A stretch of 62,706 nt of DNA from an uncultured Bacteriovoracaceae bacterium (GCA_964572405.1 CAZNGL010000003.1:1-62706), one strand, 5' to 3'; counted from the first letter of the stretch, positions 5,509-52,495 are shown. Notes: generated from the letters alone by a model not told the origin. Made by a program: numbers and translations.

Positions 5509-5741
5509 CACGCCTCCTCCTTGATAGATGGTTGCGGCACGATCACCTGACAGACAGTGCCGCCTCTTGCCGCGATCCACAAGGATTGCTCTGGACCTGG
5601 GACTCATAAAATATTAAAATATGTCAATAAGATTAATATAGATTGATATATGCAGATGACAACAGGGAAAATATATGGGGGGAATTGGGGGAGATACCCC
5701 CCATGGAAAACCTTTGCGGCCCCCCCCTTGAAGGAGCGCTC

Positions 5742-7046
5742 ATGACCGGGCCCATCCAGACAACGAGAAAGAGCACCGGAAGCCACGCCAAGAAGCTGCT
5801 GCTGGAGAACGACAGGAGGTACCGGTTCCTGGCGAACCGGATCACGGACATCATCTGGGTGCTCGACCTCAAGACCTTCCGCCTCGAATACGTGAGCCCG
5901 TCCTCGGAACTCGTCACGGGATACACGCCGGAGGAGGCTGTTGGCACCAGGCTGGACCGCTTCGTGACGCAGGAGGGGATGGCCGAGATCCAGCAGGTCT
6001 TCCTGCAGGAATACGAGAAGGAGAAGCGGAAGGTTTCCGACTCCAGGACCATCGATTTCCAGATGTACCACAAGGACGGGCACACGATCTGGCTGGAGGC
6101 CTCGGCCCGATTCTACCGCAACGAGAGGGAGAAGGCCATCGGCATCGTGGGCGTGGCGAGGGACTGTACCCTGCGCAAGGAGGCGGAGATACGGCTCCGT
6201 AAGAGCGAGGAGAAGTATCGGCATATCATCGAAACGATCAGGGAGGCCTACGGCGAGTTTGATCTCGCGGGCAACCTCCTCTCCTGCAACGATGCCACTG
6301 CAGACATCACCGGGTACTCCCGGCCCGAGCTCATCGGGATGAACTACCGGCAGTTTCTTGATGAATCCGATGCCAGGGCCGTGTTCGATGTCTTCCATCG
6401 GGTGTACCTGACCCGCCAGTCCGCGAAGGGGATCGAGTGCGCCATCAGGGACAGGCGGGGGGCTCTCAGGCAGCTCGAGCTCTCCGTCCTCCTGTTGACC
6501 GATGCGGCCGGCAGGCCCACGGGGTTCTGCGGATTCGGCAGGGACATCACCGAGGCAAAGGAGATGCACGAGCGGCTCGATGCCCTCCTGAAGGAACGGA
6601 CCGCGGAGCTGATGCAGACCAACGCGACCCTTGAGAGAACGAACATCGCCCTGCAGGTGCTCCTCGAGAAGAAGGACGAGACGAGGTTCAAGCTGGAGGA
6701 CGCCGTGCGCAGGAACGTGGGCGAGCTGGTGATGCCCGCCCTGAGCAAGCTGCAGAACAGCGGGCTCTCCCCGAAGCAGATGGCCTACGTGGAGGTGATC
6801 ACCAAGAACCTGAACGATATCGTCCAGCCCCTGCTGAAGAGCGTCTCCCGCGACCTGGTGGAAATGACCCCCAGCGAGATACAGGTGGTCAATCTCATCA
6901 AGCAGGGGAAGAAGACCAAGGAGATCGCAGAGTTCATGAATATCGCCCCCAGCACCGTGGACTTCCACCGGGACAACATCCGCTCCAAGCTGAAGATCAA
7001 GAACCGGCGGGTCAACCTGCAGACCTACCTGCGGTCGCTGGAATAG
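5742..7046 (+). CDS. PAS-PAS-LuxR(HTH) one-component transcriptional regulator
   Basis: Two PAS S-box repeats ([12 protein letters not shown]...WLE; [12 protein letters not shown]...RDIT) and a C-terminal LuxR HTH ([22 protein letters not shown]...[13 protein letters not shown]). AAGGAG precedes ATG 5742; alternative starts 5643/5703. Confidence 0.85.
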
Positions 7047-10638: not shown

Positions 10639-11421
10639 TCACGCGTCCCCCCGGGGCGACAGCCCCATGGTCTCGAGGATGCCCGCAACGACGCTCAGGC
10701 TGGGCGAGGTGTCCGGTATGCCCGCCAGGGACTCCCCCCTGAAATCGAAGTCCCGGATGAGGTCGTCCTCCAGGACCCAGCCGTAGATGGGCAGGCCGGT
10801 CCGTGTCCTGATTTCGTCCACCTCCGAAGGCTTTCTCACCCGGTTGAGCACCAGGCCCATGCTCCTGAAGTCAACCGCCCCGTTGTCCCTCGCCACGTGG
10901 GCTATGGCGTCTGCCACGCCGATGCCCTTGACCGAGGTGTCCGAGATGATCACCAGGTGGTCCACGGTCTTCATGACCCTCCGGTTTATCTGCTCCACAC
11001 CCGCCTCTCCGTCGATGACCACCACGTCGAACGATCCGGCCAGGTCCGCGAGGATGTCCTTGAGCAGCGCGTTCACCCTGCAGAAGCAGCCCTCGTCCTC
11101 GGGCCTCCCGATGGCGAGCATGGCAAACCCGTCCTGCTCGTGCAGGGCGTCGAACATCTCGTAGTCGAGCTGCCTGACGGTCTGTTGTGCGGCCTGCTGC
11201 TCGCCCTTCCTGACCCGGGATATGAGATCCCTTCTGATGTCGTCCACCGTCTTGTGGACCGTCACCCCCAGGGCCACGGCCAGGCCGCAGGCCGGGTCCG
11301 CGTCGATGGCCAGGACCTTCCTGTGTTTCCCCCTGCCCAGGATCTTCACCATCATGGCGGCCACGGAGGTCTTTCCCACGCCCCCCTTGCCGCACAGCGC
11401 TATCCTTTTCGTATCATGCAT
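10639..11421 (-). CDS. cooC: CooC/AcsF-like nickel-insertion P-loop ATPase
   Basis: Deviant Walker A GKGGVGKT, DADP, metal-binding GCFC motif and IDGEAGVEQINR, all characteristic of the CooC family. Confidence 0.8.
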   Translation of the reverse strand: MHDTKRIALCGKGGVGKTSVAAMMVKILGRGKHRKVLAIDADPACGLAVALGVTVHKTVDDIRRDLISRVRKGEQQAAQQTVRQLDYEMFDALHEQDGFAMLAIGRPEDEGCFCRVNALLKDILADLAGSFDVVVIDGEAGVEQINRRVMKTVDHLVIISDTSVKGIGVADAIAHVARDNGAVDFRSMGLVLNRVRKPSEVDEIRTRTGLPIYGWVLEDDLIRDFDFRGESLAGIPDTSPSLSVVAGILETMGLSPRGDA

Positions 11422-12151
11422 GCATGGCCTCCCTGTTCTTGTGCTGCATCGATCGTCTCATCGCCTTGAGCTGGTCCGCGTCCGAACATACATCCTGGTA
11501 TTCGCAGGACTCACAGTCGGCATCGATCTCCACTGCCATCTTGTCCATGGCAGCGACGATCCTGGCGGCAGGCCCGACGATGTCCCGCAGGGCCCTCACG
11601 TCCGCGGGGGAGGAGGTGACCACGACCACCTCGATGGACCGGACGTAATCCCTGTCGCCAAACAGGTGCATGACCGACGAGGCAAGATCGCGCGCCGAGA
11701 ACCCGGACCGTATGGCCTCGGCGCTGACCCTGCACCACTCCTTCTGGTACTGGGGCACCGCCCTGATCATGAACCCCTTCAGGTCGAGGTCGTAGCGGAG
11801 CAGGTCCATGTCCCGGTGCCGCTCGTAGGTGTTCTCCTCCGTGAAGCCTTCCACCCCGGCGAGGACCACCTTGCCGAAGGGCAGGGCCCGCTTGCGGGTC
11901 TCGGTGAAATCGGGACCTATAAGGGTGATGCGTCCGTCCGCGACCTGGCGCGGGTCGCCCGTCCACAGGAGACTGCTCACGGATTCCACGTCCGGGCTCC
12001 CCAGCTCAATGCCCAGGTCCTCCTTCATGACGATGCCCCTTCGGCCCCCGGCCGGCCAGGAGGGAAGGGGGGGCCCGGACCAGCAGCGTTTTTCCGGCAT
12101 CGCTTCGACGAAGTCCCGTACCCGGCGGATGATGTCGGTGAAGAGCTCCAT
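11414..12151 (-). CDS. Stand-alone acetyl-CoA synthase (AcsB/CdhC) middle-domain-like protein with C-terminal CxxC-x5-C
   Basis: ELGSP...DGRITLIGPD...LPFGKVV...ER...W-x-RVS-x-EA-x3-GF...VVVT pattern matches my recollection of the ACS beta-subunit central domain. Only 245 aa; ends CESCEYQDVC. Confidence 0.6.
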   Translation of the reverse strand: MELFTDIIRRVRDFVEAMPEKRCWSGPPLPSWPAGGRRGIVMKEDLGIELGSPDVESVSSLLWTGDPRQVADGRITLIGPDFTETRKRALPFGKVVLAGVEGFTEENTYERHRDMDLLRYDLDLKGFMIRAVPQYQKEWCRVSAEAIRSGFSARDLASSVMHLFGDRDYVRSIEVVVVTSSPADVRALRDIVGPAARIVAAMDKMAVEIDADCESCEYQDVCSDADQLKAMRRSMQHKNREAMHA

Positions 12152-12154
12152 GGC

Positions 12155-12940
12155 CTATGCCCTGCCCCCCGCCATTTCGCGCGCCATGACCGCGGCCCCC
12201 AGGGCCCCGATGATCTGCGGGTCCACGCCCACCTTCAGCAGCTTCACCCCCAGGGCCTCCTCGAGGGCCGTGAACATGCCCGGGTTCTTCGCCACCCCGC
12301 CGGTCATGGTGATCTCGCCCTCGAGCTCGATGCCCCGGGCCAGCGAGGCGACCCGGTGGGCCATGGCCCGGTGGAGCCCTGCAACGATGTCCGCGAGGTC
12401 TTTCCCGTCGTTGATGAGCGAGATGATCTCGGTCTCGGCAAAGACCACGCACTGGTTGGAGATGGTGACCGGCGAGCGCGCGGCCGCCGAGAGGTTTCCC
12501 ATGTCGTCCAGGGGGATACCCATGGCGCCCGCCATGATCTCCAGAAACCTCCCGGTCCCTGATGCGCACTTGTCGTTGTAGGCGTAGCGGACGACGCCGC
12601 CCTGATCGTCGAGCCTGATGGCCTTGGCATCCTGGCCGCCTATGTCGATGACCATGCGCACCTTCGGAAGGAGCCACCGCGCCCCCCTGCCATGGCAGGC
12701 GATCTCCGACTCCACGGCCGTGGCAAAGGGTATGGAGTTCCGCCCATACCCCGTGCCCATGCAGCATGCGATGTCGTCCATGGCGAGGCCGGCCAAGGAG
12801 AGCGCGCCCTCCATGACTTCCCGGGCCGAGTCTTCCGGCTCGGGCCGGGCACGGATGACATGCGAGGCGATGATGTTGCCGTTGTCCATGATGACCGCCT
12901 TGGCGCTGAGCGAGCCTATATCGCATCCCGCTGCTATCAT
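12155..12940 (-). CDS. ATP-dependent activase (HgdC/BcrAD family), second of a tandem pair
   Basis: ATG 12940 (MIAAGCDIGSLSAK) overlaps the upstream stop (ATGA); NDKCASGTG and SNQCVVFAETE motifs. Confidence 0.9.
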   Translation of the reverse strand: MIAAGCDIGSLSAKAVIMDNGNIIASHVIRARPEPEDSAREVMEGALSLAGLAMDDIACCMGTGYGRNSIPFATAVESEIACHGRGARWLLPKVRMVIDIGGQDAKAIRLDDQGGVVRYAYNDKCASGTGRFLEIMAGAMGIPLDDMGNLSAAARSPVTISNQCVVFAETEIISLINDGKDLADIVAGLHRAMAHRVASLARGIELEGEITMTGGVAKNPGMFTALEEALGVKLLKVGVDPQIIGALGAAVMAREMAGGRA

Positions 12941-13725
12941 TTCGACGCTCCTTCCATCTTCTCCCTGGCACAGACGGCGGCCCCCAGGGCCCCGATGATC
13001 TGCGGGTCCACGCGGAGCCTGCGGATGCCGGTGCCCAGGAGCTTTTCCAGTGCGGCCACCACGCCCGTGTTCTTTGCCACGCCGCCGGTCATGCACACGT
13101 CCCGCTCGATGCCCACGCTCCGGGCGAGGATCGCCACCCTTCCCGCCATGGCGCGGTTGACTGCCGAGGCGATGTCCGCCCTGGACCTCTTCGCGTTCAG
13201 GTGGTGGATCACCTCGGCCTGGGCCCACACCGTGCAGGTGGAGGCCAGCTGGAGGGGTTCCCCTGCCTGGGATGAGAGCTTCCCGAGCTCGTCGAGGCTC
13301 ACGCCAAGGATCTTGGCCATGACCTCCAGGAACCTTCCCGTTCCGGCCGCGCACTTGTCGTTGGTGAAGAACTTCACCACGTTCCCCCCGGCGTCCAGTT
13401 TGATGGCCTTGCAGTCCTGGCCGCCGATGTCGATGACGGTCCTCACCGAGGGCATGAGCCAGTGCGCACCCTTGGCGTGGCATGCGATCTCGGAGACGGC
13501 CTTGCCCACGAAGGGTATGCGCTCCCTCCCGTAGCCGGTGCCCACGCAGAACGCGACGTCCTTCATGGCCAGCCCCGACGTGGCCAGAGCCCTGTCCATG
13601 ACCTCCCGGGCGGAGTCCTCGGGTCTGAAGGTGGAGCTGATGACCGCGTGGCCGAGGATACTCTTCTGGTTGAGTATCACCGCCTTGGTGGTGAGCGAGC
13701 CGACGTCGCATCCGGCAACGATCAT
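12937..13725 (-). CDS. ATP-dependent activase (HgdC/BcrAD family), first of a tandem pair
   Basis: GCDVGSLTTK, GTGYGR, NDKCAAGTG and STCTVWAQAE motifs; AAAGGAGGA RBS. Confidence 0.92.
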   Translation of the reverse strand: MIVAGCDVGSLTTKAVILNQKSILGHAVISSTFRPEDSAREVMDRALATSGLAMKDVAFCVGTGYGRERIPFVGKAVSEIACHAKGAHWLMPSVRTVIDIGGQDCKAIKLDAGGNVVKFFTNDKCAAGTGRFLEVMAKILGVSLDELGKLSSQAGEPLQLASTCTVWAQAEVIHHLNAKRSRADIASAVNRAMAGRVAILARSVGIERDVCMTGGVAKNTGVVAALEKLLGTGIRRLRVDPQIIGALGAAVCAREKMEGASK

Positions 13726-13779: not shown

Positions 13780-14016
13780 CTACAGGGTCATGCTGATGGT
13801 CGCCCCGGCCCTGATCCGCTGGGCATAGAGCCTGCAGCGTTCCTTGAGCACGTTCATGTCGGTCGTGCGCTCGATGTGAGCCAGGGCCGGGAGGGCGGCC
13901 TCCCTGAAGAGGGTGAGGGCGTCGATGGCTCGCTGGCGTTCCACCAGCATCCGCCGGGCGTCCAGCGCGATGTCGCGGATGACCTCGATGGCGATGGCAT
14001 CATTCCTCGCGTCCAT
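13780..14016 (-). CDS. Small hypothetical protein (78 aa)
   Basis: GGAGGTG RBS before ATG; fills the gap between the dehydratase subunit and activase genes on the same strand. Confidence 0.7.
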   Translation of the reverse strand: MDARNDAIAIEVIRDIALDARRMLVERQRAIDALTLFREAALPALAHIERTTDMNVLKERCRLYAQRIRAGATISMTL

Positions 14017-14055: not shown

Positions 14056-15459
14056 TCATGACAGGATCCCCCTCAGGTGAAGGAACTCGCTCATCTTGTC
14101 CATGGCCGCGTCCCAGGACTGCACCCGGTCGTCGAAGGAATCCGAGTACATGATGAGGGCCGGGATGCCGCGGCGCTCCAGGTCCCGGGCATAGGACTTC
14201 ACCATGCCCCAGGTGTTCCTGCACCCGATGGTGCCGAAGTATGCAACGAAATCCGCGCTCAGGAGTTTTGACATGACGAGCGTGTCGTCCAGCCACATGT
14301 TCGGGGCGTCGTACGGCCCGCGGATGGACTTCACCATGGGCATGCGCGAGTTCTGTATGGCCAGGGTGTCGATGAGGTCGTCCATGCTGCCCGTGCGTAT
14401 GCGGAACACGGCATCCTGGTGCTCTCCCGCGTACGCGGCGCCCTCCTCCCAGAAGGAGCTGAGGATGCACCCGAGATGCGAGATCTCCTGCCTGTCGAGG
14501 AAGGACCAGAAACGCATGTCCGTGGTATAGTGGTCGATGTACGAGAAGAAGCCGCGGGCCCTCTCCCTGCCGGAGCCGGTTCCGGCCCTTCCTTCAGCCG
14601 CATTGGCCCTGACCTGCTTCAGCATGGCCCTGAGCAGCTCGGTGTAGTCCCTTGTCCCGCCCATGAGGAAGTTGCCCGAGTAGAGGAACATGGTGAAGAT
14701 CCCCGGCACGGGGGAGGGCACGATCCTCTGGAGCTCGGTGAACTCGTTGATGAGCTCGGCCTGCATCGCGAGCTCTGCCACCACCTCCCTGAGGCGGTCC
14801 TCGTCGAGCTTCCTGCCCGTCTGCTCCTCCAGGAATCCGACCAGGCTCCAGAAATCCCTGCGGTGGAACTCCCGGGCCCGTTCGTCGGTGAGGGTGGGGG
14901 GGAAACAGAGCTGGTGGAAGGGGATGTCCAGGTATGCGGAGGCGAATGCGTACGAGTTTGCATTGGTGTCGCAGATGCCCGGCGAGTCGCACACGATCAT
15001 GTCGGGCCTGACCCCGAGACCCGCCAGATAGGCGCCCAGGGCGCCGCGCTGGGATGAGCATGAGGTCTCGGTGAACCCGACCTCGCAGCAGTAGTCCAGG
15101 AACTCCCCGGTTCCCCGCTGGAGGATGAAGGTGCCCAGTACGGTCATGGGTTCCAGCAGGAGAGGCACCACGTCGAACGCGTACAGGATGGGCGGCGCGA
15201 AGCAGAACGTGGTCATGGCCACCTTCTTGCCCTCGTCGTGGGCGCGGATGACCCTGTTCAGGTACCTGCCGAGAGCCTTCATGAGCAGGACGCCCGCCTC
15301 CCCCTGGCTGATGATCGCATCCAGGGAGTCCCGGAAATGCGGGATGAGCGAAAGCAGCGACTCGTACTCCTTCTTCGTCCCGTCGTAGGTGAACGATGCA
15401 TTCTGGATGATGGTCCAGATGGACCAGTCGTAATGATATTCCCTCGTCTCCCTTCTCAT
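14056..15459 (-). CDS. 2-hydroxyacyl-CoA dehydratase / benzoyl-CoA reductase subunit (HgdA/BcrB type)
   Basis: ETSCSSQR, GICDTN and IGCRNTW motifs; C-terminal YSDSFDDR. Confidence 0.85.
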   Translation of the reverse strand: MRRETREYHYDWSIWTIIQNASFTYDGTKKEYESLLSLIPHFRDSLDAIISQGEAGVLLMKALGRYLNRVIRAHDEGKKVAMTTFCFAPPILYAFDVVPLLLEPMTVLGTFILQRGTGEFLDYCCEVGFTETSCSSQRGALGAYLAGLGVRPDMIVCDSPGICDTNANSYAFASAYLDIPFHQLCFPPTLTDERAREFHRRDFWSLVGFLEEQTGRKLDEDRLREVVAELAMQAELINEFTELQRIVPSPVPGIFTMFLYSGNFLMGGTRDYTELLRAMLKQVRANAAEGRAGTGSGRERARGFFSYIDHYTTDMRFWSFLDRQEISHLGCILSSFWEEGAAYAGEHQDAVFRIRTGSMDDLIDTLAIQNSRMPMVKSIRGPYDAPNMWLDDTLVMSKLLSADFVAYFGTIGCRNTWGMVKSYARDLERRGIPALIMYSDSFDDRVQSWDAAMDKMSEFLHLRGILS

Positions 15460-16589
15460 GCGATCCTCTCCATGAACGCATCGATGCGCATCTTGATCCT
15501 TCCCGTCTCCACCAGGGGTCCGTATTCGCGTTCCATGCGCATGCAGGGGACGCCCGAGGCCTCCAGGTCCCGCTCGAAGATGCCGTTCTCGGAGCCGTGC
15601 AGGTCACAGAACCGGATGTTCTGGAGGATGACGCCGTCCACGCGGGCCTCACGCGCCAGCTCCCGGATGTAGGCGAGTCTTTCCCGGTAGCAGCCGAACA
15701 TGCGGGGACAGAACTTGTGGCTCAGGTAACGCTTCGCCAGGGCCTCGAAGGGATCCGCCTCTTCGTCCACCAGGTCGCGGTAGGACCTGGAACCGAAGCA
15801 CATGGTATCGCTCACCACCACGCCTCCGGAGGACTCGATGAGCCTGATGAAATCCAGGTCGTCGCTGGTGCTGCCCACCACCATGAGGCGTTTTCTGCCG
15901 CCAGTCACGGCAGGAGCCTTCTTCAGACCCTTCAGGATCTCCTTCAGCTCCCTGGTATAGTCTTCCCGGGGCATGGCAAACCCGGCCAGCACGATCGCCG
16001 CCGCATCCTCCCCGGTCAGGGGTGAGCCAGGGGAAGCCCTCAGTGCATCGAGCTCCATGAGGAGCCTACGGCCCTGGTTGTAGAGCCTGATGGATTTTTT
16101 CAGCGACGCGGTGGACACGCTTACCCCGAAGTGTTCTTGGAGGCGGTTCGAGAAGATCCGCAGCTCGTCCGTATACCACGTGATGCTGTAGTCCTCCACC
16201 TTGTGGGGGACGCCCAGGTAGTGGAAGAACCCCGGCACCCTGCCCGGGATGTCCTGGCCTGCCTTTCTCCAGCACTCGTCGAGCCTCCGCATGGAATCGC
16301 ATCCGTTCACGATGACGGCACCGTCGAGGAAGGCGTAGTCGCCCTGGCCGGCCAGCTGGAGTATGCACTTGGGGAAGCTGCAGATCACCGGACCGAAGTA
16401 GGTGTCGCCGATGGACAACGTGGTGGTGTTGATGCCCCTGAGCCGGAAGGGCAGCATGCCCGCGGCATGGATGATCTCGTCGGGCACGAAGGTGCATGGG
16501 TAACCGATGACCTTTCCCCCCGCATCCTTCCACTGCCGCAGGTAGGTGTTGCCGATGGATCGCGCGATGTCCCTCATGGCATCCATCAT
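15456..16589 (-). CDS. 2-hydroxyacyl-CoA dehydratase / benzoyl-CoA reductase subunit (HgdB/BcrC type)
   Basis: GYPCTFVPDEI, ICSFPK, NGCDSMRR, DTMCFG, RFCDLHG and MRIDAFME motifs. Confidence 0.88.
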   Translation of the reverse strand: MMDAMRDIARSIGNTYLRQWKDAGGKVIGYPCTFVPDEIIHAAGMLPFRLRGINTTTLSIGDTYFGPVICSFPKCILQLAGQGDYAFLDGAVIVNGCDSMRRLDECWRKAGQDIPGRVPGFFHYLGVPHKVEDYSITWYTDELRIFSNRLQEHFGVSVSTASLKKSIRLYNQGRRLLMELDALRASPGSPLTGEDAAAIVLAGFAMPREDYTRELKEILKGLKKAPAVTGGRKRLMVVGSTSDDLDFIRLIESSGGVVVSDTMCFGSRSYRDLVDEEADPFEALAKRYLSHKFCPRMFGCYRERLAYIRELAREARVDGVILQNIRFCDLHGSENGIFERDLEASGVPCMRMEREYGPLVETGRIKMRIDAFMERIA

Positions 16590-17794
16590 GATTCACCCCC
16601 TGCACACAGCGGTGCGCCGTTCCGTGACGGCACGGCCGCGTCCAGGATCGGCCGCAGCGCCTCGATGACCTCGGGCACGATCCAGGCGGCCGCCGCCCTG
16701 ATCTCCTCGGTGTCCAGGGAATCGGCCACGCTGGTGATGAAGGAGGAAAAGACCTCGGGCCTGACCTCGTGGATGCCGTTGAGCACCCGCGCAAGGGTGT
16801 TGAGGGAATTCGCCATCTCGTAGGTGTCGAGGTCGGAGAGGCCCTGCGCAACCGACCCGGCCAGGGTCTCCCGGTCGAATTCCTCGAACATGCGGGTCCT
16901 CCGCGAGAAGGCCCTGATGGCAGGCGACTTCAGGGAACCGAGGGCACGCACCATTTCGAGCACGAGGTCTGGATGTTCCCTCAGCGCATCCGCCAGGGCA
17001 CAGGCAGCGGCCTCCCTGTCTTCCGCCAGTGCGACGCGGGCCTTCTTCAGGAGGACGGGGTCGACGAGCGGCAGGCCCTCCTCGAGCAGCGCGGTGAGGT
17101 AGACCTGGAAAAGGGGCCTGCCTGCCCTGGCAAGGAGGAGGTTGCCCGTATGGACGCGCCGGATGAGCTCGCTCACCGAGTTCGCCAGACGGGCGATCTC
17201 CCCGGCATCGAGCCTCCGCACCAGCGAGAGCAGGAGGTCCGCCAGGAGGTCGGGCCCCACCTTCTTCTCGATGGGCTGCAGGAGGGTTCTCACTGAGCTG
17301 ATCCCGGTGTTGACCAGGGCGAGCAGGGTGCCCAGGATACTCCCTGCCTTGGCGGGGTAGCTCCAGAGGTGCTCGTTGAAGGCCTCCAGCGCCTCGATGA
17401 CGCGAGCCCTCGATTTCTCCGCCATCTCCCGGATCTCACCGAAGTCGGTGCTCCTGAGGAAGCCGTGTATGGCCTCCCCGTGCATGGCCGCTCCGCCGGC
17501 AGGGGCCGCTGCCTGTTCGGCATTCACCGTGCGGGCCCACGCGGTGACCAGCGTCCCCACATCGGCCGCCATGCCCCCGTCGTGCCTGGCCGGAGGGGTA
17601 TTGCCCAGTCTGGACGCGACCCACAGGGCGGGGGCTGCGAGCCTTTTCCTGAAGCCCTTCCCATCCGCCCAGCCGCAGATGAGGTCTTTTGCCACCTCCG
17701 AGACCAGGGCCCTGGCTCCCGCAGACCGCATGGTCCTGCCGATGATGCGGGCCAGGGCCCGGGTGCCGGCCGTCTGGTGATCCGTGCTATTCAT
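16586..17794 (-). CDS. Hypothetical all-alpha protein (402 aa), paralogous to 18482..19132 and 19129..19560
   Basis: Translationally coupled on both sides; repeated P-x2-L/F...[VL]D-x2-E[LI] helical motif. Confidence 0.75.
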   Translation of the reverse strand: MNSTDHQTAGTRALARIIGRTMRSAGARALVSEVAKDLICGWADGKGFRKRLAAPALWVASRLGNTPPARHDGGMAADVGTLVTAWARTVNAEQAAAPAGGAAMHGEAIHGFLRSTDFGEIREMAEKSRARVIEALEAFNEHLWSYPAKAGSILGTLLALVNTGISSVRTLLQPIEKKVGPDLLADLLLSLVRRLDAGEIARLANSVSELIRRVHTGNLLLARAGRPLFQVYLTALLEEGLPLVDPVLLKKARVALAEDREAAACALADALREHPDLVLEMVRALGSLKSPAIRAFSRRTRMFEEFDRETLAGSVAQGLSDLDTYEMANSLNTLARVLNGIHEVRPEVFSSFITSVADSLDTEEIRAAAAWIVPEVIEALRPILDAAVPSRNGAPLCAGGES

Positions 17795-18485
17795 TGTGCC
17801 CCCCTGTCTTGTCTTTGAGCATCTCTTCCAGGGCCCTTCTCCCGGCCTCTGTCATGTGGGTCTCGAACATGAGGTGGCTCATGGTGGTGAGCGTCGCAAT
17901 GGCCTCCTCGCGGGTGAATTTCTCCTCCATGAGGAAGCTGTGACCGAGGTGCATGGTCATGCCCACCACGGCATAGGCCATGGTGATGGGGTTCACGCCC
18001 TCGATGACCCCCATGTCCAGCCAGCTCTGGATGTCCTCGGCAAGGTCCTGGGCGATGTCGCTGTAGTGCTTCCAGATGGTGACATCCATCTCCTCGTCCA
18101 CGCCGAAGCTGCCGCGGAGCACCATGAGGAACTGCTGGCGGTGGGAGGTGATGTAGTCGAAGTAGGCGCCGTAGCTCTGATTGAGCTTGTCCACCCTGTC
18201 TCCGTGGTCCCAGATGTTCACCGGCTCCCTGAGTTTCCTGATGCGCAACCGCAGCTCCTCCAGGTTCCGGTTGGTGATCTGCCCGAAGAGATCCCGCTTG
18301 TCCTTGAAGTAATTGTAGAAGGTTCCCGCCGACATGCCCACGGCCTTGACGATGTCCATGACCTGGGTGTTGTGGTAGCCGTGCCTGCTGAAGAGCTCTT
18401 CGGCGGCCTCCATGATCATGTCCCGGATGAGCTGCTTCTTCTTTTCCAGGAGTTTGTTCACGGGTGTTGCCCTCATGCCCTTCAT
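17787..18485 (-). CDS. TetR/AcrR family transcriptional regulator
   Basis: HTH AAEELFSRHGYHNTQVMDIVKAVGMSAGTFYNYFKDKRDL; ATG 18485 overlaps the upstream TGA. Confidence 0.92.
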   Translation of the reverse strand: MKGMRATPVNKLLEKKKQLIRDMIMEAAEELFSRHGYHNTQVMDIVKAVGMSAGTFYNYFKDKRDLFGQITNRNLEELRLRIRKLREPVNIWDHGDRVDKLNQSYGAYFDYITSHRQQFLMVLRGSFGVDEEMDVTIWKHYSDIAQDLAEDIQSWLDMGVIEGVNPITMAYAVVGMTMHLGHSFLMEEKFTREEAIATLTTMSHLMFETHMTEAGRRALEEMLKDKTGGHNE

Positions 18486-19132
18486 ATGCCGAGCCTCTTT
18501 CTCACCCTGCCCCGCACCAGGTTCCAGGTCCAGGACGCCAGGCGCCACTTCTGGTCGAGGAGGGCATTGGCCATGGTGGTGGCGGCCTTTGCCAGTTCTT
18601 CCCCGTCGACGTTTTCCATGACTGTGGCGATGAACCTGCTGAAGGCCTGCGGGTCGTCCCGGGTGATGCTGTTCACGAACCGCGAGAATGCATTGATGGC
18701 GCCCGCTTTGATCTTGGGTCCTTCGGAGAGAAAGGCCCGGATAAGGGTTGTTCCCAATTCAGGCGAGGCCTTGATCATCGCGGACGCGAGACCTGCCCAT
18801 TCCTTGCCGCACTCCCTCAAGGCCTCCCTGTCGATGTCCTCCGCGAGGCTGACCATGAACGACTTCAGGAGCTCGGGTGGGTACTTGTCCTTCAGTTGGG
18901 TCGCCAGCTCGGTGAGCGCGCCTGTCACGCTGTTGATGAACACGGGAAGGCCCCCGGAAACCCCGAAGAAGACCTCCGGGTCGTCCCCGAGGAGTGTCTT
19001 TACCGCCTCCCTGCCCGAGCCGGGATGCAGGGAGTTCATCTTCACCCGGATGAGGTCCTTTGCAAGGGTGGAGCGCATGAGGGCCTTCAGGATACCCCCC
19101 TGGTTCTGTGTGGATGGCCCGGCCTGTCTCAT
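18482..19132 (-). CDS. Hypothetical all-alpha protein (216 aa)
   Basis: ATGA overlaps on both sides; clear similarity to 19129..19560 (DPEV...YPP-x-LL...EDID/EDVD). Confidence 0.75.
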   Translation of the reverse strand: MRQAGPSTQNQGGILKALMRSTLAKDLIRVKMNSLHPGSGREAVKTLLGDDPEVFFGVSGGLPVFINSVTGALTELATQLKDKYPPELLKSFMVSLAEDIDREALRECGKEWAGLASAMIKASPELGTTLIRAFLSEGPKIKAGAINAFSRFVNSITRDDPQAFSRFIATVMENVDGEELAKAATTMANALLDQKWRLASWTWNLVRGRVRKRLGI

Positions 19133-19560
19133 GTGCCCTCCTTTCCCCTCAGGGCCTGTTCCTCCACGGCCTTCGCAAAGGCGCCGAAGACGGGCGCCAG
19201 GTCACTGCCGAGGTCCCTGAGATCGTGGATCAGGCATGCGAGGGTCTGGCGGTCCACGTCTTCCAGGAGGGATTCCACCATGCCCGCGAGCAGGGGCGGC
19301 GGGTACGTGCGCCGGACCTGCACCACGAGCTCCGCTGCGATCTTGATGAAGCAGTTGGCGATCACGGGGAGAGCGCCCGTCACGGCCAGGGGCACCTCGG
19401 GGTCCTTCCCCAGGATGGTCCGGACGAGCCCGGGACCGGCCTCAGGATCGATGTTCCTGAGAAACAGGCGCAGGCTGTCCTTGAAGGATGCGCTGGCCAG
19501 GAGCTCTTCGGCCACCCTCGTCCTGCCTTCGATCAGTCCCGTGTTCGCGGCTTCGTCCAT
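19129..19560 (-). CDS. Hypothetical all-alpha protein (143 aa)
   Basis: GAGGTG RBS; paralog of the next gene. Confidence 0.75.
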   Translation of the reverse strand: MDEAANTGLIEGRTRVAEELLASASFKDSLRLFLRNIDPEAGPGLVRTILGKDPEVPLAVTGALPVIANCFIKIAAELVVQVRRTYPPPLLAGMVESLLEDVDRQTLACLIHDLRDLGSDLAPVFGAFAKAVEEQALRGKEGT

Positions 19561-19569
19561 GGCATCACC

Positions 19570-20844
19570 TCACAGCGTCTCGCAGTTGAAGAAGTACCGG
19601 GCGGCCTCCATCTGGCAGAGCTGCTTGCCGCCCATCCAGAGCTGCACGATCTTGATGTCGCGCCAGTGCTTCTCGATGTCCCAGTCCCGGTCTGCGCCGA
19701 ACAGGCCGAGCACGTCCATGGCCTTGCCGAAGTTCTCCACGGCGCGATCGGAGATGAAGTCCTTGATGTTGCGGATCCTCCCCACCACGTCCTCGGAAAT
19801 CAGGGGCTTGCCGTGGGGCTTGTTCCTCCGGTCCCCGATCATGGCCGCCTCGTGTCCCAGGATGCGGCAGATGTCGATATCGCCCGCGATGCGGCCGATG
19901 ATGCCTGCCACGGCATCGTTCTCCTTGAGAGGGGTATTGTTGTAGGTGCGGGTGGACACGAACTCGTAGAGCCGCTCGTAGAGGTTCAGCATGGCGCCGG
20001 TGAGGAAGGCGCAGCTCATGACCTGGCCGAAGGAGATGAGCTGGTAGAAGGCCTCGGCGTCCCTGCCGGGACCGTGGGCCCGGTACCAGGAGGGTACGCG
20101 GACGTCCTCGAACCAGATGTCGCCGTTCTTGTCCGCCGCCATGCCGGCCTTCTCATAGGCGCCGCCCTGGGTCACGCCGGGCAGGTCCGCAGGGACGAAG
20201 ATGAAGGCGAAGTCCCTGGGGTCGCTGGACCCGGGCTTCGTGGTGCAGGGCACGCCGAAGAGGCTGGCCACGCCGCCCGAGTTGGTGGGCCAGAGCTTGT
20301 GACCGTTGATGACCCACTCGTCGCCGTCGAGACGGGCCGTGGTGCGGATGGTCCTGCCGCGGAGCAGCCCGAGGTTCTCGATGTCGGCCCCCCCCTGGGG
20401 CTCGGTCATGGCGTTGGCCGCGAACACGGCCTTGTCCGCCTTGCAGAACAGGGGCGCGAACTCGGCGATGAGGCGCTCGTTCTTGTAGGGCTCCACCATG
20501 ACGACGAGGAGCGGCCAGAAGGTCACGGCCAGGGCAACGGCCATGCCCGTGTCGGCCCTGCCGAGCTCCTCGCAGAGCATGTACCCGCCGCGGAAGGCGT
20601 AGTCGGAATCGGCCAGGCCCCAGCCCCCGTATTTGAGGGGGAAGAGCGATTTCTGGAGTCCGAGCTCTGCCATGAGCCTGTCGAAGGCCGGTTCGATGAG
20701 GTTGTGGTCCTTCCAGTCCTCGTCGTATCTCCGGCGCTGAGGCATGACCCACTCCTCCAGGTGCTTCCTGAGGAGGCGCCTGAAGTGCCGGTCAAAGGGG
20801 GATATGTATTCTTCCGGACGGGAGAATTCGTCGAAATGCATCAT
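19570..20844 (-). CDS. Acyl-CoA dehydrogenase-fold flavoprotein (atypical active site)
   Basis: NAMTEPQGGAD, NGHKLWPTN, FEDVRVP and EKHWRDIK motifs; the canonical C-terminal YEG is replaced by WMG. Confidence 0.88.
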   Translation of the reverse strand: MMHFDEFSRPEEYISPFDRHFRRLLRKHLEEWVMPQRRRYDEDWKDHNLIEPAFDRLMAELGLQKSLFPLKYGGWGLADSDYAFRGGYMLCEELGRADTGMAVALAVTFWPLLVVMVEPYKNERLIAEFAPLFCKADKAVFAANAMTEPQGGADIENLGLLRGRTIRTTARLDGDEWVINGHKLWPTNSGGVASLFGVPCTTKPGSSDPRDFAFIFVPADLPGVTQGGAYEKAGMAADKNGDIWFEDVRVPSWYRAHGPGRDAEAFYQLISFGQVMSCAFLTGAMLNLYERLYEFVSTRTYNNTPLKENDAVAGIIGRIAGDIDICRILGHEAAMIGDRRNKPHGKPLISEDVVGRIRNIKDFISDRAVENFGKAMDVLGLFGADRDWDIEKHWRDIKIVQLWMGGKQLCQMEAARYFFNCETL

Positions 20845-20859
20845 GGCTTCATCACCTCC

Positions 20860-22098
20860 TCAGATCTCGGAACAGTCGTAGAAGAAGCGGGCCGTGTCCA
20901 TCTTCACCGGCGCTTCAGCGCCCACCCCGCACAGCAGGGAACCGATGGTCTTCACATCCCTCCAGTGTTTCTCCACGTGCCACTCCTTGGCGTAGCCCGC
21001 GGACCCCATGAGCTCCATGCCCCGGTCCATGGCCCTGAGCGCCCCCCGGACGGCCCGCAGGCCGATCATCCCGGCATAGGCGAAGGTGCGGCCCATGTCC
21101 GAGCGCCACGATCCGGCCTGCGCCGCCATGATGCCCGCCAGATCGTAGAGGAGGAGCTTGGCCACGGCGATCTCCTCGGCGACGTCGGCAAGGACCGACG
21201 CGCACAGGGGGTTCTCCTTCAGGGTGGTGCCTCCCTTGATGACCCGGTGGTCGCTCCAGTCGGCGAGGAGTTCGAAGAAATTCGTCGCGGCCCCGACGCC
21301 CACGCCGGCCAGGAGCAGGTTGAGCCAGGCGTAGAGACCCGCTATGGTCTCTTCCCCTTCCAGGACGCCATCGCCGGGCACCGGCGCGTCGTAGAGGTCT
21401 ATCTGGGCGTTGCCGCAGGCATTGAGTCCGGTCATGAGGATGGGAGAGCCCCGCTTCACTCCCTGTGCGTCTCCCGGGACAATGGCGAGGCACGGCGTAG
21501 AGTCTCCCTTGGCGCACACCACGCAGAAGAGGTCGGCCATGCCGCCTGCGACGAGGGGCCGGAGGCCTTTGCCGTTCAGCGTGAAGCCGTCTTCTGATTG
21601 TCTTGCACTGACCAGGATGGACCTTCCGAAGAACAAAGGTGTCTGCATGCCGGTGAAGCCCGGGCCGGTCAGGATGAGGGCCGGGGTCCTCACTGTCTCG
21701 TCCGCAGAGATGCCTGCCAGGATACTGCACCGCCCCTCCCCGTTGTCGTGCGCCCCGGCGGCAAGGGACAGCGCCCAGGTTGCTGCGGAAAGGAAGCCCA
21801 TGGAGGCGTCGGCGCGGCCTGTCTCGCAGGCGAGGGTGAGCAGGGCAGGGGCTTTTGCAGGGCTGTTCCAGCCGAACCCGCCGAGGTCTGAAGGGATGGC
21901 GAGCTTCTGCAGGCCGATGTCCATGGAGAGCTTCTTCCTCTTTTCCGCAAAGAGCCGATCATAGCCCTCCCGGTATTCCATGCGTTTTGAGACGATCTCC
22001 TTGTCGGCCCACTGCCTGAGAAGCCGCACGACGCTCAGGGATTCCTCGTCCATGGCGTGCTTCGGGTAGAGAAAAAGTTCGTCGAGATTCCTGCTCAT
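20860..22098 (-). CDS. Divergent acyl-CoA dehydrogenase-fold protein (putative partner subunit)
   Basis: C-terminal GMELMGSAGYAKEWHVEKHWRDVK is conserved, but the N-terminal FAD motif is degenerate (LILTGPG for ALTEPG). GAGGAGG RBS before ATG 22098. Confidence 0.82.
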   Translation of the reverse strand: MSRNLDELFLYPKHAMDEESLSVVRLLRQWADKEIVSKRMEYREGYDRLFAEKRKKLSMDIGLQKLAIPSDLGGFGWNSPAKAPALLTLACETGRADASMGFLSAATWALSLAAGAHDNGEGRCSILAGISADETVRTPALILTGPGFTGMQTPLFFGRSILVSARQSEDGFTLNGKGLRPLVAGGMADLFCVVCAKGDSTPCLAIVPGDAQGVKRGSPILMTGLNACGNAQIDLYDAPVPGDGVLEGEETIAGLYAWLNLLLAGVGVGAATNFFELLADWSDHRVIKGGTTLKENPLCASVLADVAEEIAVAKLLLYDLAGIMAAQAGSWRSDMGRTFAYAGMIGLRAVRGALRAMDRGMELMGSAGYAKEWHVEKHWRDVKTIGSLLCGVGAEAPVKMDTARFFYDCSEI

Positions 22099-22274
22099 AG
22101 GTCCTCCTCGCAAGAGGGATAGGATGGATATGCCGGTGTGTGTTCGTACCTGGAATGAGGGCAGGGAGAAAGGGACAGAAACTCACGGGCATGACGGGTA
22201 TCCCCACACAGGTCCTTCACGGCAAACCCCCTTTCAGGGTAATCAAAACACCAGGCCGACACGAACCCTCTTGA

Positions 22275-22639: not shown

Positions 22640-22912
22640 TCAGAGGATCCCGGCTATCCATCGCTCGGCATCCTCGGGACTTGTGACATAGTGCACCGGG
22701 CGGTCCCGGATATCCTCCACCCTTGTGCAGGCGCTCGAGCATCCGCTCACGATCAGGACCATCTGTGCATCCTCGCTGTCCGCTGGAATGAACTCCACCA
22801 TGCCTGCGAGCCGTTCCCTGATGGTTTCGACCATCTCCACCCGGTCATAGCCTGCCCGGCACCCACCGCAGTACTTGAGCCCGACCCTTATCTTTCCTTG
22901 TCGATGCCGCAC
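22640..22912 (-). CDS. Small Cys-motif protein (KYCGGC...GCSSAC)
   Basis: C-terminal part of ORF 22640..23122 (IRVGLKYCGGCRAGYDR...VSGCSSAC). The start (GTG 22912, overlapping the abfD end) is uncertain. Confidence 0.6.
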   Translation of the reverse strand: MRHRQGKIRVGLKYCGGCRAGYDRVEMVETIRERLAGMVEFIPADSEDAQMVLIVSGCSSACTRVEDIRDRPVHYVTSPEDAERWIAGIL

Positions 22913-24345
22913 AGGTACCTGGCCACCTTCTGCTTCTGCTTCATGTTCACGAGCCTGGCGATCATGATGCGCTGGGCCTGGGGAGAGCCCGCGCCGTGCA
23001 TGGACTCGGTGAGGTAGCCCACGGCCGCGGTGCCCATGGTGATGTTCTCGATGAGCCGCAATATGCGCATCCTGTGCTCCGTAGGCACGTCCGCCTTGGT
23101 CTTGAAGTACTTGTCCACCCACTTGCCGACCTCCGGAGAGGCGAGGTCTTGTGCCGATGGACAGGTCGCCACGAGGCCGCCCGCGATGTCCTGGGCGAGC
23201 CGCGCGATCTCGTAGGGGAACCGCGTGACGTTCTGCTTGTGCACGTTGGCCAGCAGCACGTCCACCAGGAAGGTTCCGCTGGGCTCCTTGTGGCCTTCAG
23301 CGGCGCAGGCGATGCAGCCGCAGAAGAGCGTCTCGTTCAGCTGGTTCATCTCGATGAGCTTGTCCTTGATGTGGGAGGCCTTCTCTGCGCCGTTGAACTC
23401 GGCCACGGTCTGGGCGGCGCCGATGAGCACGTCCCCCACCCCCACCTTGCACGCGTAGCTCTGGCGGTGGTACGCCGCGAAGTTCTCCACGAGCTGGGTG
23501 GTGAAGTCGTACTCGCGGTACATGAACACCCGCTCCCAGGGCACGAACACCTTGTCGAACACCACCAGGGCCTCGTGGCCCCCGTAGTGCATGTTGCCGC
23601 GGTCAAAGGTCATCCCCTCCAGCTTGCGGGTGTCGCAGGACTGGCGGCCCATGATGTAGGTGATGCCTTCTGCGTCGCTGGGCAGGGCGAACGAGACGGC
23701 GTAGTCCCTGTCCTCCTCGCGCATGGTGATGGTGGGCATCACGATGATCTCGTGGGAGTTCACCGCACCGGTCTGGTGGGCCTTGGCGCCCGAGACCACG
23801 ATACCGTCCTTTGTCTCCTCCACCACGTGCATGAACAGGTCCGGGTCGAACTGCCTGACCGGCGAGGCGGAGCGGTCGCCCTTGGGGTCGGTCATGGCGC
23901 CGTCGCAGACCAGGTCGTTCTCCTGGACATAGGCGAGGTATTTCAGGAACCGCTTGTTGTACTCGGTGCCGTACTTGGCGTCGATGGCATGGGTGGTGAT
24001 GGACAGCGCGTTCAGCGCGTCCATGCCCACGCAGCGCTGGAAGCAGCAGGCGGTGAGCGAGCCCAGGAGGCGGCCCATCTTGCTCTTCTTCACCAGGTCC
24101 TCCCTGCTCTGGTGGATGTGGGTGAAGCGGTTGATCCTGTCTCCCGTGAGGTGGCTCCGTGCGGTCATGATGTCCTCGTACTCGGGCCGGTGAGCGAACT
24201 CGTAGGTGGCCGCCACCGCGTTCATGGACGGCCGGATGATGGGGTCGTCCACCGGGTTCTCCACCTTCCTGCCGAACATGTAGACCCTCAGCTTCAGCCT
24301 GCGCAGACTTTCCTCATACTCCTTCGCGTTCATCAGCCTGGCCAT
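22888..24345 (-). CDS. abfD: 4-hydroxybutyryl-CoA dehydratase / vinylacetyl-CoA isomerase (HpaB-fold, FAD + 4Fe-4S)
   Basis: CFQRCVG and YHRQSYACKVG Fe-S ligand motifs, plus GAMTDPKGDRS and ESMHGAGSPQAQ. Confidence 0.85.
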   Translation of the reverse strand: MARLMNAKEYEESLRRLKLRVYMFGRKVENPVDDPIIRPSMNAVAATYEFAHRPEYEDIMTARSHLTGDRINRFTHIHQSREDLVKKSKMGRLLGSLTACCFQRCVGMDALNALSITTHAIDAKYGTEYNKRFLKYLAYVQENDLVCDGAMTDPKGDRSASPVRQFDPDLFMHVVEETKDGIVVSGAKAHQTGAVNSHEIIVMPTITMREEDRDYAVSFALPSDAEGITYIMGRQSCDTRKLEGMTFDRGNMHYGGHEALVVFDKVFVPWERVFMYREYDFTTQLVENFAAYHRQSYACKVGVGDVLIGAAQTVAEFNGAEKASHIKDKLIEMNQLNETLFCGCIACAAEGHKEPSGTFLVDVLLANVHKQNVTRFPYEIARLAQDIAGGLVATCPSAQDLASPEVGKWVDKYFKTKADVPTEHRMRILRLIENITMGTAAVGYLTESMHGAGSPQAQRIMIARLVNMKQKQKVARYLCGIDKER

Positions 24346-52429: not shown

Positions 52430-52495
52430 AATGGACTTGCCTTTCACGGCCGTGGCATGTATGGTATCAGGAGAACACTGTGCAAGGAGACGTGT

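Follow-up and report, generated by a model that had tools for sequence, protein, structure and literature searches.

A central-domain relative of acetyl-CoA synthase and a CooC-type ATPase in BzdNOPQ-like operons: a possible accessory module of acyl-CoA radical enzymes

Why should a shortened relative of acetyl-CoA synthase (ACS) and a CooC-type ATPase be encoded in the operon of a reductase-like enzyme? The question is raised by two neighbouring genes in a 62,706-nt stretch of DNA (the window; GCA_964572405.1, CAZNGL010000003.1:1-62706) from an uncultured Bacteriovoracaceae bacterium. One encodes a 245-aa protein, referred to here as mini-ACS, and the other an ATPase, referred to as CooC. To our knowledge, ACS and CooC/AcsF are known only from carbon fixation by carbon monoxide dehydrogenase (CODH)/ACS and from CO metabolism. 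Both genes lie on the minus strand (Table 1). An original prediction, made from the sequence alone, had given their coordinates correctly and had tentatively connected them with CoA-ester chemistry rather than with the Wood-Ljungdahl pathway. Our best reading, to which we assign a probability of about 0.42, is that mini-ACS and CooC are a chaperone-client pair derived from an ACS plus CooC/AcsF ancestor. The pair may have been recruited as a CoA-binding, metal-cluster accessory module to acyl-CoA radical enzymes, namely a BzdNOPQ-like reductase and often also a second, HgdAB/HgdC-like enzyme.

Fold, cysteine motif and conservation of mini-ACS

Residues 41-180 of mini-ACS matched the Pfam family PF03598 (CdhC; E = 5.9e-11, 42.9 bits against a cut-off of 24). 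Sequence matches in the PDB were confined to ACS/CdhC chains and aligned with approximately residues 284-484 of bacterial ACS. An AlphaFold2 model of the protein had a predicted local distance difference test (pLDDT) score of 87 and a predicted template modelling score of 0.85. When this model was compared with the PDB by Foldseek, all 23 matches at E <= 1e-3 were ACS/CdhC chains. The best of them was 6ytt_A (4e-11, query TM-score 0.60), and the next-best unrelated match had an E value of 0.5. The predicted resemblance to the central (A2) domain of ACS, and to nothing else, was found by all three approaches. Sequence identity to any ACS is only about 20%. The Pfam scan of mini-ACS gave no match to PF19436, the ACS A3 domain, and the protein ends 23 residues past the third cysteine of its C-x2-C-x5-C motif, so that the rest of the A-cluster domain is indeed missing. 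These 23 residues form a helix, and the earlier description of the protein as ending in the motif has to be corrected in this respect.

The cysteine motif itself could be placed by profile-profile alignment (hhalign) with ACS gene fragments comprising A2 and the beginning of A3. The alignment (98.3% probability, E = 1.7e-14) runs through the motif and matches C213, C216 and C222 to cysteines one, two and three of the ACS motif Y-x-C-x2-C-x8-C-x9-C, with a deletion of three residues (x5 versus x8). This is stronger than the original claim, in which the CxxC was in about the register of the first A-cluster ligands. The A-cluster of Moorella ACS is ligated by Cys506, Cys509, Cys518 and Cys528 and by Cys595 and Cys597. 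The equivalents of the mini-ACS triad are Cys506, Cys509 and Cys518, all three of them cubane ligands; Cys509 in addition bridges to the proximal Ni. The fourth cubane cysteine, the Cys-Gly-Cys Ni site and the remainder of A3 are absent from mini-ACS. Some distant members of the family have a fourth cysteine upstream of the triad (C-x3-5-C-x2-C-x5-C).

The A2 domain is also the part of ACS that holds the substrate. In the Clostridium autoethanogenum enzyme, acetyl-CoA is bound mainly to A2 with its adenine stacked on Trp405, and Arg383 and His386 have been proposed to catalyze acetyl transfer (bioRxiv 10.1101/2024.08.05.606187). W139 and R141 of mini-ACS align with Trp405 and Arg407 of the T-W405-V-R407 segment in 6ytt_A. 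Because these two residues are invariant and match the ACS residues, a CoA-binding role of mini-ACS is suggested. As judged from its sequence, mini-ACS is clearly derived from ACS, yet it stands outside ACS proper, having neither the A3/Ni site nor the catalytic residues nor the CODH context. With the CoA site and the cubane loop kept and the fourth cysteine, the Ni site and the catalytic residues lost, it resembles not an acetyl-CoA synthase but a domain for CoA binding that carries a vestigial loop for the cubane.

A word-indexed search identified 140 clusters (90% identity) of mini-ACS relatives. The 120 closest clusters listed were about 245 aa long, apart from a few fragments, and their identity to the query ranged from 43 to 87%. 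When 1.84 billion representatives were searched exhaustively with a profile, clusters at 50% identity numbered 222 for E <= 1e-30 and 532 for E <= 1e-10; among 150 of these clusters that were listed, nearly all were about 230-275 aa long and matched the whole profile. All relatives stem from uncultured organisms. In an alignment of 38 sequences (43-87% identity), C213, C216, C222, W139, R141 and about 20 other positions were invariant, and C-x2-C-x5-C occurred in over 250 of the 267 full-length sequences of the family. The ratio of nonsynonymous to synonymous substitution rates (dN/dS), determined against three relatives with 73-76% identity, was 0.16-0.23 for mini-ACS; for CooC it was 0.13-0.27. 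Both genes are under purifying selection (dN/dS about 0.2).

These data bear on the most conservative explanation, namely that mini-ACS is a decaying or mis-called fragment of a Wood-Ljungdahl acsB gene accompanied by a leftover cooC/acsF. Its Pfam and JGI label, "CO dehydrogenase/acetyl-CoA synthase beta subunit", would agree with this. The low identity to any ACS, constant length, invariant motifs and dN/dS of about 0.2 refute it, as do the synteny with genes outside the Wood-Ljungdahl pathway, conserved in 172 species-level genomes, and the absence of any CODH, corrinoid iron-sulfur (Fe-S) protein or methyltransferase gene of that pathway from the window ORFs scanned (see below). We therefore give an acsB remnant next to no probability, in agreement with the original prediction, which had suggested an undescribed Ni- or Fe-S-binding protein.

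The CooC-type partner and the gene neighbourhood

The best PDB match of the partner ATPase was CooC1 of Carboxydothermus hydrogenoformans (3kje, 5e-16), followed by ArsA (1e-7). Its C112-F-C114 aligned with the C-Y-C of CooC1, the Ni/Zn-binding CxC motif. Among 78 partner sequences, GKGGVGKT (residues 11-18) was kept in at least 90-98%, G111, C112 and C114 in at least 98%, and an extra cysteine directly before the P-loop, C10, in at least 90%. No NCBIfam model was passed by the protein. In every sequence test the ATPase appears to be a bona fide CooC, and its context is not that of one, with no cooS or acsB in the window. Characterized CooC and AcsF proteins are maturation factors, and in the related Mrp/NBP35 ATPases the corresponding dimer interface holds Fe-S clusters.

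The CooC start codon lies 8 nt inside the end of the mini-ACS gene (ATGCATGA), with the mini-ACS stop and the CooC start overlapping. The predicted translational coupling to a CooC with intact GKGGVGKT and GCFC motifs is thereby confirmed. On the other side, the stop codon of ATPase subunit b and the ATG of mini-ACS are separated by 3 nt, and the gene downstream of CooC begins 30 nt past the CooC end. Because of the 8-nt overlap and the 3-nt and 30-nt junctions, we regard these genes as one tightly packed operon. A single 518-aa ATPase open reading frame (ORF; 12155-13711), by which the neighbouring region had first been described, turned out to be a long-open-frame artefact. GC content at third codon positions (GC3) and Pfam matches resolve it into two BcrAD genes (12937-13725 and 12155-12940), which lie in different frames and overlap by 4 nt, as in all related loci.

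A Pfam scan of 50 window ORFs, which cover nearly all GC3-supported ORFs of at least 250 aa, identified no CODH, no corrinoid Fe-S protein and no Wood-Ljungdahl methyltransferase, as had been expected. The sole methyltransferase among the scanned ORFs is a generic Methyltransf_23 protein in a lipopolysaccharide glycosyltransferase cluster. CODH, corrinoid Fe-S protein and methyltransferase genes were likewise absent from those related loci for which a gene list or a second Pfam scan was available.

Among genomes scanned at one per species, at least 172 were found to encode a mini-ACS relative, and 80 loci were fetched. The hosts are sediment and digester anaerobes and belong to the Desulfomonilia and other "Deltaproteobacteria", Smithella/Syntrophaceae, Desulfobacterales (including a metagenome-assembled genome of Desulfosudis oleivorans), Spirochaetota/Leptospirales and Bacillota. 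The window proteins were mapped by tblastn onto 89 loci, and genes were clustered in 86. CooC adjoins mini-ACS in 78 of the 89 loci, with a median gap of 18 nt, and the pairing is therefore conserved, as the original prediction had required. Of the 11 loci without an adjacent CooC, three lie at contig ends, and in five the flanking sequence exceeds 8 kb. One of the five carries an orphan mini-ACS (locus L052, 9980-10702) with an intact triad between a PilZ-LuxR regulator and recC/recB, and no HGD-D, BcrAD or CooC gene is present within 10 kb of it.

The genes around the pair are conserved as well. The core order (u402, BzdN-like subunit, three-Cys HGD-D subunit, BcrAD ATPase, BcrAD ATPase, mini-ACS, CooC) was kept in Desulfomonilia, Smithella/Syntrophaceae, Desulfobacterales, Spirochaetota and Bacillota. 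This synteny across several phyla supports the proposed link to CoA-ester radical enzymes rather than to the Wood-Ljungdahl pathway. A second module, consisting of a six-Cys subunit, a three-Cys subunit and a single activator, is optional and frequent. A TetR regulator, two paralogous proteins and two acyl-CoA dehydrogenases are co-inherited with the core in 34-39 loci. Further optional genes encode a 437-aa ferredoxin-domain protein (16 loci), a GMC-type flavoprotein (17 loci) and an AMP-ligase (6 loci). Clustering of the ORFs of the 86 loci revealed no recurrent gene family beyond those named here.

In 14 loci, mostly of the Smithella type, a gene for a fusion of flavodoxin with a 2x[4Fe-4S] ferredoxin is present (e.g., L002, 11653-12486), and in 11 of the 14 it lies directly downstream of CooC. 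Its product is a candidate electron donor of the ATPase module. The idea that mini-ACS is the only electron donor is weakened, since some loci also carry this gene. A natural fusion of mini-ACS itself to a C-terminal 2x[4Fe-4S] ferredoxin domain, with the triad intact, was found in two independent metagenome assemblies (protein P0121; L090, 235-1161, and L091, 216-1142), in each case with a CooC gene after it.

Far more divergent mini-ACS proteins are encoded in four loci. All four keep the BcrAD and HGD-D context, with the limitation that the upstream gene of L089 is truncated at the end of the contig and unclassified, and three of the four keep CooC. Three loci (L086, L088 and L089) have very divergent mini-ACS proteins in minimal clusters, some of them with four cysteines (C-x4-C-x2-C-x5-C). 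L086 (GCA_003353945.1) has the order HGD-D, HGD-D, one BcrAD, mini-ACS, CooC, followed by molybdopterin oxidoreductases. In L089, hypA and cobW metallochaperone genes are located a few kb away.

The surrounding reductase-like enzyme and the role of the pair

The 377-aa subunit matched BzdN (PDB 8s02_B) over its full length, and its six cysteines (32, 70, 97, 264, 294 and 328) were invariant in 74 orthologues, in the pattern of a double-cubane [8Fe-9S] cluster. Six is also the number of ligands of the double cubane in BzdN and in the double-cubane cluster protein (DCCP; PMC11971306). The NCBIfam double_cubane model matched this subunit at 7.5e-54, below its cut-off. The 467-aa subunit has three invariant cysteines (134, 163 and 413), a pattern that resembles that of the open-site [4Fe-4S] subunits BzdO and HadB. 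In the PDB it matched only DCCP and HadB (about 1e-8), with no significant match to BzdO, and the NCBIfam bzdO model was not matched; a BzdO-type catalytic subunit is defined by three cysteines together with the catalysts Glu65 and His131. Cys125 and Cys164, the cluster ligands, are invariant in each of the two BcrAD ATPases; in class I benzoyl-CoA reductase of the Bzd type, one [4Fe-4S] cluster is shared by the two different ATPase subunits. Six cysteines are conserved in the 386-aa subunit of the second module. NCBIfam equivalog scores for bzdN, bzdO, bzdP and bzdQ were far below the cut-offs (e.g., 146 against 454 for bzdN and 206 against 380 for bzdQ). Judged by these matches, the surrounding enzyme is BzdNOPQ-like and not benzoyl-CoA reductase itself. 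The HgdAB-type neighbours of the original prediction do belong to the HGD-D family, but their resemblance to BzdNOPQ is at least as strong.

Two further proteins belong to the conserved surroundings. The all-alpha protein u402 is encoded in 62 of the 86 loci. Sequence searches of Pfam, NCBIfam and the PDB gave no match, even when a profile was used, and its AlphaFold2 model (pLDDT 75) had no Foldseek match; its invariant positions include W42, D117-F-G-E120, W144, P181-D-L183, R213 and H215-T-G217. The 78-aa protein was matched by tblastn at 64-70% identity in 36 related loci, where its gene lies between the HGD-D genes or before the ATPase genes, and it is probably a further small subunit.

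How might mini-ACS and CooC serve this enzyme? We infer the following sequence of events. The triad would hold an Fe-S cluster whose fourth position is open or unusual. A CooC dimer would then use ATP to complete or metallate that site, the metal being, by homology, Ni(II) held on the CxC motif, and C216 would be the equivalent of the ACS cysteine that bridges the cubane to nickel. The mature mini-ACS, translated together with the two ATPase subunits, would be a redox-active auxiliary subunit that binds CoA or a CoA ester at the electron-input side of the reductase. A redox role is suggested by the ferredoxin-domain fusion, the four-Cys distant members and the flavodoxin-ferredoxin genes near CooC.

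Several points weigh against this accessory-module reading. The triad is still kept in the five well-flanked loci without an adjacent CooC, and this comparison therefore gave no discrimination. In the AlphaFold2 model the triad region has a pLDDT of 62-76, i.e., moderate confidence, and the three cysteines could equally hold Zn. The positions of Arg383 and His386 are not conserved in the mini-ACS family and are occupied by Met, Leu or Asp and by Arg or Leu, respectively, in pairwise and profile alignments. CooC could act on HGD-D or ATPase subunits instead of on mini-ACS. The reductase subunits are canonical in their six-, three- and two-Cys patterns; only these patterns are conserved, and no nickel-type extra ligands were found in the HGD-D or ATPase subunits. 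DCCP gains its clusters in Escherichia coli without helpers of this kind. BzdNO likewise gains its [8Fe-9S] and [4Fe-4S] clusters there without them (PMC11971306). Given canonical subunits and cluster loading of BzdNO and DCCP in E. coli, there is no evident need for an extra subunit. Furthermore, BzdNO itself binds the CoA tail, which leaves a second CoA-binding protein unexplained.

Alternatively, mini-ACS and CooC may be assembly or repair factors only. They would then act as scaffold or adaptor that builds or re-inserts the double cubane, the open-site [4Fe-4S] cluster or the ATPase-bridging cluster, and would stand outside the working enzyme. The maturation function of CooC and AcsF and the clusters carried by Mrp/NBP35 fit such a role, both genes lie downstream of the structural genes of the first module, and a three-Cys site suits a transient cluster carrier. 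Most operons for benzoyl-CoA reductase (BCR), 2-hydroxyacyl-CoA dehydratase (HAD) and DCCP are not known to include such genes, and a conserved tryptophan for the CoA adenine and a ferredoxin fusion are hard to explain for a pure scaffold. The tight translational coupling of mini-ACS to the ATPase subunits suggests a similar stoichiometry, which also argues against an assembly factor. The HGD-D subunits do carry demanding clusters, as indicated by their cysteine conservation and by PMC11971306; the loading of BzdNO in E. coli cited above shows that these clusters can be obtained without such factors. On balance we consider a pure assembly function unlikely, although it deserves serious attention.

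A bolder version of the accessory-module reading is that mini-ACS holds a minimal Ni-Fe-S centre, in which the triad binds a cubane and a private CooC delivers Ni via C216, making a widespread group of BCR-like enzymes Ni-dependent. We doubt this rather strongly. If true, it would provide either an extremely low-potential entry for electrons or organometallic acyl-CoA chemistry beside a bound CoA ester, and the ACS/CooC invention would have found a second use in biology, outside the Wood-Ljungdahl pathway. The pair could also constitute a self-standing nickel enzyme, whose triad cubane and CooC-delivered Ni would form a minimal A-cluster-like or [Ni-Fe-S] site beside bound acyl-CoA, for new thioester or organometallic chemistry in the pathway, such as cleavage or formation of acyl-CoA or decarbonylation. 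C216 aligns with the ACS cysteine that bridges the cubane to the proximal Ni, the Ni motif of CooC is invariant, the CoA-binding tryptophan is retained, and the conserved core is without a CoA ligase or transferase. However, some loci do carry genes for an AMP-ligase or an ADP-forming CoA-ligase, the 50 scanned window ORFs include no partner that would handle CO or alkyl groups, and mini-ACS has neither the Cys-Gly-Cys Ni site nor the fourth cubane ligand nor the catalytic Arg/His residues of ACS. We regard an independent nickel enzyme as improbable.

The retention of CoA-binding residues and loss of catalytic ones would also be compatible with a sensor or gate. The A2 domain would report CoA or an acyl-CoA ester to the ATPase module and so prevent futile ATP hydrolysis, the triad would be a structural Zn site, and CooC would be a Zn or unspecific metallochaperone. 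CooC1 binds Zn too, and the mini-ACS gene adjoins a BcrAD ATPase gene even in the distant loci. The ferredoxin fusion and the four-Cys variants point instead to a redox cluster, and it would be unusual for a structural Zn site to have an ATPase of its own. We therefore think that a sensor is very improbable. The remaining probability belongs to roles that we have not considered.

Other genes of the window, significance and comparison with known systems

The features of the locus are collected in Table 1. The 216-aa and 143-aa proteins upstream of the core (18482-19560, minus strand) are paralogues of each other and had no Pfam match even at E <= 1. In one of the two acyl-CoA dehydrogenase genes that follow (19570-22113, minus strand), the Acyl-CoA_dh_M domain was not matched by Pfam; the layout recalls heteromeric acyl-CoA dehydrogenases that act on bulky CoA esters. 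Beside the cluster, a 485-aa protein of the HpaB family (22888-24345, minus strand) is encoded in what is apparently an anaerobe. This family includes 4-hydroxybutyryl-CoA dehydratase, another radical CoA-ester enzyme. On the opposite side, a 454-aa ORF (5604-6968, minus strand) was considered as an extension of the operon and rejected as a shadow ORF on the basis of GC3 and the absence of a Pfam match. The real gene there is that of a double-PAS LuxR-type regulator (5643-7046, plus strand). Further away, a 657-aa protein (52457-54430, plus strand) combines Old-Yellow-Enzyme and pyridine-nucleotide-disulfide-oxidoreductase domains, the architecture of enoate and 2,4-dienoyl-CoA reductases.

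Table 1. Features of the mini-ACS/CooC locus, in positions of the window.
Feature	Position	Strand	Basis or remark
mini-ACS, 245 aa	11414-12151	minus	ACS A2 domain, first ~45 residues of A3 (cubane-ligand loop) and C-terminal helix
CooC-type MinD-family ATPase, 260 aa	10639-11421	minus	PDB match to CooC1, motifs, dN/dS
Cys-triad codons of mini-ACS, C213-x2-C216-x5-C222	11486-11515	minus	C213, 11513-11515; C216, 11504-11506; C222, 11486-11488
W139-C140-R141 codons of mini-ACS	11729-11737	minus	Alignment to ACS Trp405/Arg407
Deviant Walker A of CooC, G11-KGGVGK-T18	11368-11391	minus	Read from sequence
CxC metal-binding motif of CooC, G111-C112-F113-C114	11080-11091	minus	Aligned with C-Y-C of CooC1
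BcrAD/BzdQ-type ATPase subunit b, 261 aa	12155-12940	minus	Pfam BcrAD_BadFG, 6e-55
BcrAD/BzdP-type ATPase subunit a, 262 aa	12937-13725	minus	Pfam, 7e-61; GC3 frame analysis
Conserved small 78-aa protein, ERQRAIDALTLFR motif	13780-14016	minus	GC3 0.91, tblastn
HGD-D family subunit, 467 aa, BzdO/HadB position	14056-15459	minus	Pfam HGD-D, 6e-41
BzdN-like six-Cys subunit, 377 aa	15456-16589	minus	PDB BzdN 8s02_B, 1e-43
All-alpha 402-aa protein (u402), first core gene	16586-17794	minus	Synteny; AlphaFold2 model
Second BzdN/DCCP-like six-Cys subunit, 386 aa	9448-10608	minus	Pfam HGD-D, 7e-78; frequent but optional second module
Second catalytic-type HGD-D subunit, 558 aa	7839-9515	minus	Pfam HGD-D, 1e-51; NCBIfam bzdO, 2.6e-9
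Single BcrAD/HgdC-type activator ATPase of second module, 268 aa	7066-7872	minus	Pfam, 3e-51
Upstream genes: TetR regulator, 216-aa and 143-aa paralogous proteins, two acyl-CoA dehydrogenases (424 and 417 aa)	17787-22113	minus	Pfam, synteny

The observation of general interest is that a CooC and the half of ACS that binds CoA, still with three A-cluster cysteines, have been maintained under purifying selection as a module of another enzyme class, namely the ATP-driven BCR/HAD/DCCP radical enzymes. Our literature searches, which included recent surveys of CODH and ACS diversity, yielded neither an A2-only ACS protein nor a CooC in BCR or HAD operons. A 2026 survey of ACS architectures contains only forms with both A2 and A3 (bioRxiv 10.64898/2026.07.07.736967). 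If the metal site is real, CooC ATPases would have clients beyond CODH and ACS, class-I-type reductases of strict anaerobes would have an unrecognized extra component, and mini-ACS, being small and soluble, would be a tractable model for how assembly of the A-cluster begins. The sizeable number of such genes that now bear the label "CO dehydrogenase/acetyl-CoA synthase beta subunit" would also inflate Wood-Ljungdahl calls in metagenomes.

In comparison with ACS (AcsB/CdhC, PF03598 plus PF19436), mini-ACS has the A2 fold in common and likewise contains the motifs E-x-G, G-P-D, L-P-x-G and W-x-R-I-S-x-E-A. It differs in that it lacks the A1 domain, has A3 cut to about 45 residues, and is without CODH or corrinoid Fe-S protein genes in its context. 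The ATPase shares with CooC1 and AcsF, which belong to the MinD/SIMIBI class, the deviant Walker A motif GKGGVGKT, the CxC in the same position of the alignment (C112/C114 in CooC1 as well) and a length of about 255 aa. It is distinguished by the conserved C10 and by a gene that adjoins that of an A2-only ACS-like protein in a BcrAD/HGD-D operon, not cooS or acsB.

We know of no described HAD or DCCP system that includes an ACS-domain protein or a CooC. The second module has the same layout as 2-hydroxyacyl-CoA dehydratase with its HgdC-type activator, i.e., two HGD-D subunits and a single activator ATPase, and the six-Cys HGD-D subunits resemble DCCP of the DCCP/DCCP-R system. In contrast to HAD and DCCP, both HGD modules here are heterodimeric, with one six-Cys and one three-Cys subunit each. 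BzdNOPQ (class I benzoyl-CoA reductase, PDB 8S02) and MbdNOPQ have, like the enzyme described here, a six-Cys and a three-Cys subunit and two different BcrAD-type ATPases (PMC11971306). Unlike BzdNOPQ, the operons described here encode a three-Cys subunit that is not detectably close to BzdO; they add u402, the 78-aa protein, mini-ACS and CooC, and their hosts are strict anaerobes.

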